From assembly GCF_054482525.1 (NCBI RefSeq), contig NZ_CM137006.1: a DNA stretch of 64,000 bases; one strand, written 5' to 3'. The translations under genes and the position numbers were made by a program. The stretch's first letter is position 1. Each line of letters begins with the position of its first letter. Below, one piece after another: positions 35,337 to 35,696 of this stretch. Below the pieces are notes generated by a model, which made no database searches, was not told the DNA's origin, and saw only the letters and a list, made by a program, of their open reading frames with translations.

Positions 35337-35625
35337 ACCGTTTGCGGCGTCGGTAACACGAGTAAAGAGAGGAAGTGAGAAAAATACAGAGTGACGAAGT
35401 TGCTACCGGAGGAGAAATCTCCGCAAGTGGTGGAGCGTTGCTTAACAAAACATTGTCCAGAACAGGACGTTACCATCCGCGATCTCCATAGTGACTGACT
35501 ATCACTGCCGGGAACTTCCGCTGCTACTTAATAATTACAACAGATCTCGCATCCATTGCAACAATATATTCACTTATATTTAACTATAAAATACCATTTC
35601 AGTGACATTAGTTTCTACTGGAAAG

Positions 35626-35643
35626 ATGACAGAGTGATGACAG
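35626..35643 (-). promoter_or_regulatory. Pho box (PhoB binding site) upstream of phoH
   Basis: minus-strand CTGTCATCACTCTGTCAT: two direct CTGTCAT repeats with the spacing expected for a Pho box. Confidence 0.7.
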
Positions 35644-35696
35644 ATATGAAAAAAGCTGTGTGCTTTCAGCAGGATTCGCAGTACTGGTAAAAGCTT

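Follow-up and report, generated by a model that had tools for sequence, protein, structure and literature searches.

The PhoB operator upstream of phoH in an Escherichia coli genome and the regulatory sequences around it

The window, a stretch of 64,000 nucleotides (nt), comes from Escherichia coli: the 701 nt around the Pho box described below are 100% identical to those of PCN033 and two other strains, and the same 701-nt query is matched in 5417 of 5426 complete E. coli genomes. The genes on either side of the box, efeB and phoH, are both carried on the minus strand (Table 1), the conserved ribosome-binding site AAGGTG lies ahead of the start of the 262-aa form of phoH, and the order efeB-REP-box-phoH is the same in the window and in K-12. 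On the 3' side of phoH, within 32985..34412, are a DUF2726 gene (33164..33850) and tRNA-Ser(GGA) (32985..33072), followed by ghrA. In K-12, pgaD comes directly after phoH; the pga biofilm locus is missing from this position in the window.

Table 1. Features of the efeB-phoH region in window coordinates
Feature	Coordinates	Strand	Remarks
phoH CDS, 262-aa form	34413..35201	minus	RefSeq annotation; Pfam PhoH, E = 4e-77
Structured mRNA leader	35201..35476	minus	Region of the N-terminal extension in K-12; covariation
GGAG ribosome-binding site (35487..35484) and ATG (35476..35474)	35474..35487	minus	Invariant; "long-form" start of K-12
Likely constitutive promoter P2: -35 TTGCAA (35561..35556), -10 TGTAAT (35539..35534)	35534..35561	minus	Inferred; start near 35527-35532
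ArcA-P operator, four direct repeats: ATGTCACTGA, 22 bp, then TAGTTAAATA, AAGTGAATAT, TTGTTGCAAT	35555..35608	minus	Site of Park et al. 2013
Predicted P1 -10, GAAACT	35610..35615	minus	10 bp after the 18-bp box; expected start near 35603
Pho box, two 11-bp direct repeats: CTGTCATCACT and CTGTCATCTTT	35622..35643	minus	18-bp core at 35626..35643
REP element between efeB and the phoH promoter	35697..35730	plus	2 mismatches to the canonical REP
Perfect 9-bp inverted repeat ATGCCCGAT / ATCGGGCAT	35760..35787	minus	10-nt loop; just after the efeB stop codon
efeB	35799..37070	minus	RefSeq annotation

Just beyond the box towards efeB lies a REP element, which the earlier note on this DNA had placed there. 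The element is intergenic, matches the REP consensus, has a second copy in the window at 16345..16378, and gives a partial match (33.4 bits) to naRNA4, an Rfam family derived from REP. Over 34900..36000, a permissive Rfam search (E up to 1) returned only this REP-like match and a spurious match to CPEB3. Judging from its sequence, the hairpin that follows the efeB stop codon is probably a terminator or stabiliser of efeB. The efeB-phoH spacer (35660..35800) varies within E. coli, with an extra REP-like sequence in K-12 and a single REP and a different hairpin in the window, and the REP region is shorter in the window than in K-12. This variability accounts for the fact that most genomes are only 90 to 95% identical over the 701-nt query.

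In the intergenic region, the minus strand reads TTTTCATAT-CTGTCATCACT-CTGTCATCTTT-CCAGTAGAAACTAATGTCAC, and the immediate surroundings of the box are ...TTTTCATAT CTGTCATCACTCTGTCATCTTTCCAG TAGAAAC.... The half-sites are two exact copies of CTGTCAT, 7 bp each with an 11-bp periodicity, and the core, CTGTCATCACTCTGTCAT, shows no mismatches to the Pho-box pattern; the box lies on the phoH strand and is oriented with transcription. Both the 26-mer quoted in the earlier note, found at 35643..35618 (minus) inside the interval given for it there, and the description of this sequence as two direct CTGTCAT repeats at the spacing of a PhoB site are borne out. The pattern CTGTCAT-N4-CTGTCAT has a single exact occurrence in the 64-kb window and none in 100 dinucleotide-preserving shuffles; when up to two mismatches are allowed, there are 2 matches as opposed to 0.39 expected. 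Short motifs do arise randomly, and nothing beyond that speaks for a chance repeat without function. Its absence from every shuffle, the retention of its position across genera and its occupancy by PhoB in vivo in K-12 leave this explanation with practically no probability, and we regard it as already refuted.

A PhoB position weight matrix was derived from 57 ChIP-seq sites (Table 1 of Fitzgerald et al. 2023, PMC10294691), with phoH and agp excluded. By this matrix, the phoH box scores 18.6 bits (training median, 14.9), ranking second among 127,966 positions on both strands. The top match in the window, TGTCATATTTCTGTCACA (56862..56879, minus, 21.0 bits), precedes the agp ATG by 36 nt. The K-12 counterpart, AGTCATATTTCTGTCACA, is a published PhoB ChIP-seq site (PMC10294691) where the action of PhoB is negative, and the first half-site is nearer to the consensus in the window than in K-12.

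Within E. coli, the 18-mer is identical in all 11 strains inspected, and 5382 of 5426 complete genomes carry a 141-nt segment of the promoter, with at least 90% identity in all but one. In 73 of the 78 species of Enterobacteriaceae with enough upstream sequence, a site of at least 10 bits begins 410 to 470 nt upstream of the phoH ATG, as opposed to 0.35% of equal-sized control windows. This conservation upstream of orthologous phoH genes agrees with Fig. 9 of PMC10294691 as the text of that paper describes it. The half-sites of genera other than Escherichia are weaker, reading TGTTAT or TGTAAT in Enterobacter and Kosakonia and TGAAAT-N5-TGTCAT in Citrobacter, and in some genera the best matrix score falls one repeat (11 bp) further downstream. 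In E. albertii and in Escherichia sp. MOD1-EC7003, only the second CTGTCAT is kept, the first having been replaced, and the remaining site, at about -442 from the phoH ATG, scores 3.9 to 4.7 bits, a decay that may have weakened or abolished PhoB control of phoH in these lineages.

The box is the long-known PhoB operator of E. coli phoH and, as such, textbook biology. Its 22 bp and the 57 bp that follow are identical in K-12 and the window, and the identity reaches 27 bp upstream of the box apart from the two bases directly before it, which are CA in K-12 and AT in the window. The K-12 18-mer (1084825-1084842) is 3 bp from the centre (1084845) of a PhoB ChIP-seq peak, for which Fitzgerald et al. 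2023 (PMC10294691) list a ChIP score of 11 and the motif TGTCATCACTCTGTCATC. In addition, phoH RNA amounts to 37,076 in wild-type K-12 and 13,375 in a phoB deletion (2.8-fold lower, q < 0.01), and sigma-70 occupancy at the phoH site drops by more than 2-fold when PhoB is absent (PMC10294691). The gene also appears as a member of the Pho regulon in reviews and in RegulonDB-derived tables. The tests that the earlier note had put forward for its Pho-box reading, PhoB binding and PhoB-dependent induction, have already been made in K-12, where the box is identical; their outcome favours that interpretation, which is thereby supported. Given the identity of the sequences, the binding and regulation seen in K-12 would be expected to carry over to the window strain. 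The original description is that of Kim et al. (1993, J Bacteriol 175:1316), who reportedly observed a PhoB footprint on the phoH box as well as two promoters, P1 dependent on PhoB and P2 constitutive.

The ChIP site sequences show that pstS and phoA, like phoH, carry on the coding strand a pair of CTGTCAy half-sites with a spacing of 11 bp (PMC10294691). The phoH operator differs in the composition of its 4-bp spacers, which are CACT and CTTT as opposed to the A/T-rich spacers of pstS and phoA, and in the number of boxes, one as opposed to the tandem boxes of pstS. At pstS and phoA, the -35 element is replaced by the Pho boxes, which stand about 10 bp from the -10. The spacing from box to predicted -10 at phoH is the same as at phoA and pstS, where PhoB contacts sigma-70, and from this likeness we infer that GAAACT is the -10 of P1 and that transcription starts near 35603. 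GAAACT matches a -10 hexamer poorly; position 2 (35614) is invariably A, and GAnnCT is kept in most of the 20 aligned genera. A consensus promoter scan found no good TTGACA-like -35 overlapping the box.

Downstream of the Pho box, and separate from it, is an operator for ArcA. The K-12 phoH site, ATGTCACTGAAATGG...TTGTTGCAAT (ATGTCAC...GCAAT), has a footprint from -80 to -21 and mediates 25.3-fold repression (Park et al. 2013, PMC3798270). The 54-bp element in the window, in which three of the repeats are contiguous and one is distal, is this published operator, from which it differs at 2 positions, and the pattern GTT...GTnAA...TGTTGC is conserved across genera. It begins only 14 bp after the Pho box and overlaps both the predicted start of P1 and the probable -35 of P2.

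The proximity of this mapped operator bears on the possibility that another OmpR-family regulator reading 11-bp-spaced repeats, such as ArcA, is the main protein to bind the repeat, and that PhoB is secondary. The orthologous sites in Enterobacter and Kosakonia, TGTTATATTTCTGTAATA, come near to the ArcA repeat TGTTA, and the resemblance of TGTTAT and TGTAAT half-sites in other genera to ArcA-type repeats is a point against assigning the repeat to PhoB. However, the ArcA site and footprint as mapped (ATGTCAC...GCAAT) exclude the CTGTCAT repeats, and the E. coli box is a perfect PhoB consensus that is bound by PhoB in vivo, such that a primary role for another regulator is very improbable.

The position of the constitutive promoter P2 is uncertain. 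The consensus promoter scan picked only TTTATA-N16-TATATT (35590..35563), a candidate that is less favoured because the ArcA footprint, numbered -80 to -21, fits a start near 35530 better. The footprint numbering and the conserved blocks favour TTGCAA/TGTAAT. A literature search on phoHp returned no relevant match.

Many PhoB sites in E. coli are transcriptionally inert, and most lack a regulatory effect (Fitzgerald et al., PMC10294691); likewise, PhoB could bind the phoH repeat with only a small effect on transcription, the expression and regulation of phoH being due mostly to P2 and ArcA. The loss of phoB lowers phoH RNA by a factor of only 2.8, as opposed to a drop of about 770-fold in pstS RNA (PMC10294691), and ArcA represses phoH 25-fold. 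Yet the change in phoH RNA is statistically significant, the occupancy of the site by sigma-70 depends on PhoB, and, unlike the inert intragenic sites, the phoH site is intergenic, lies in what would be a canonical promoter geometry and is present in 73 of 78 species, making an inert operator very unlikely. A modest response is expected of a gene that also has a constitutive P2, and this second promoter explains why the induction of phoH is much weaker than that of pstS and phoA. Taken as the PhoB operator of a phosphate-starvation promoter, P1, of phoH, the repeat is very probably explained.

Under this assignment to P1, PhoR would phosphorylate PhoB when phosphate is scarce, and a head-to-tail PhoB dimer would occupy the two 11-bp repeats, standing in for a -35 element and bringing sigma-70 RNA polymerase to the weak -10. 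Transcription would start near the position expected for P1 and proceed through a leader of about 400 nt into phoH. P2, about 70 bp downstream and independent of PhoB, would supply basal expression, and ArcA-P, by covering the start region of P1 and the -35 of P2, would turn phoH off anaerobically. Such an arrangement would place phoH of the window strain under PhoB and ArcA control like that of K-12. The Pho box itself adds nothing new to what is known, but it is a real regulatory site that was recognisable from raw sequence.

Within the transcribed region, a GGAG sequence precedes the ATG at 35476 by 7 nt, and in K-12 the equivalent ATG is the start of the annotated 354-aa PhoH. The distance from this ATG to the conserved phoH start at 35201 is 275 nt in the window rather than 276, reflecting a 1-nt deletion near 35390 relative to K-12; the upstream ATG is therefore out of frame with phoH and opens a 98-codon open reading frame (ORF) (35476..35180, minus) that ends 21 nt past the phoH ATG. 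The earlier note had situated the box about 150 nt upstream of the long-form phoH start. The distance holds, at 146 to 167 nt, but the ATG from which it was reckoned is frameshifted relative to phoH in the window strain, and only in K-12-type strains can it be called the "long-form phoH start". The 262-aa form is the one annotated by NCBI in PCN033 and in each of the eight further non-K-12 strains looked at. The PhoH Pfam domain is wholly inside this short form (residues 57-261), and the N-terminal extension matches no Pfam family.

Of the complete E. coli genomes, 1965 are matched by a 90-nt probe of the window-type leader and 3417 by a K-12-type probe, and the sum of the two (5382) equals the number of genomes with the promoter. 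These counts indicate that ordinary translation cannot yield the long form in approximately 36% of sequenced E. coli; neither the window allele nor, by extension, about one-third of sequenced E. coli can give rise to the 354-aa PhoH of the K-12 annotation. An E69-type frameshift, at a second indel site, was considered as another common allele and rejected, since no complete genome matched it at 95% or more, leaving two main leader alleles in E. coli and not three.

Across the 78 species, the upstream ATG is 270, 273, 276, 279 or 282 nt from the phoH ATG in 51, where it is in frame with phoH and the frame is open, and 272, 275 or 278 nt away in 27, where it is shifted by -1. Where the frame is shifted, the upstream ORF stops at one of two places relative to the phoH ATG, about 35 nt ahead of it or 21 nt past it, and the frame shifts are located differently in different lineages. 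The third frame (1 mod 3) is never seen, which could still be due to chance, as independent frame changes are few in number.

From 35476 to 35201, the leader is conserved across genera in both its length and its blocks, and RNAalifold predicts 46 pairs in 9 helices. Covariation was assessed in an alignment of 50 sequences from Enterobacteriaceae, with controls in which partners were slid by 1 to 3 columns and with 500 shuffles. Standard pairs make up 96.7% of the cells in the predicted helices, as opposed to 29 to 48% when partners are slid, and changes on both sides of a helix occur in 110 cells, as opposed to 17 to 40 in the slid controls and 41 ± 6 in the shuffles, none of which (0 of 500) reaches 110. 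The best-supported helices are 35351-35346/35319-35314 and 35252-35246/35241-35235. The helix GGCTT/AAGCC (35294-35290/35283-35279) is nearly invariant, with one G-U variant among the 50 sequences, and as a consequence provides almost no evidence for or against structure. The fold of the window leader has a z of -2.89 relative to shuffles. A further helix, pairing CUAUGGAGA in the upstream ribosome-binding region with UCUCCAUGG at the short-form start, came from a single-sequence fold and was rejected upon inspection of the alignment by eye: its upstream side varies (CTAT, CTTA, CAAT, CATT) while CCATGG is invariant, with no compensation.

The leader matched no Rfam family, and a literature search on a phoH leader or riboswitch found nothing relevant. 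It is conceivable, although we hold it to be rather doubtful, that these roughly 275 nt constitute an undescribed cis-regulatory RNA, with helices that compensatory changes have maintained across Enterobacteriaceae and with translation also under constraint; with its look of a conserved structured RNA, the long leader downstream of the box may deserve separate study. In their passage on phoH, Meydan et al. 2019 (bioRxiv 520783) report an in-frame internal start site detected by Ribo-RET within the K-12 gene, along with enhanced conservation at synonymous sites, the cause of which that passage leaves open. The alignments suggest that this synonymous-site conservation stems from RNA structure together with reading-frame constraint. 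If the leader were indeed such a regulatory RNA, the distribution of upstream ORF frames (in frame in 51 of 78 species and in about 64% of E. coli, including K-12; shifted by -1 in 27 of 78 species and in about 36% of E. coli) would fit control of the short PhoH by translational coupling or by the opening of structure.
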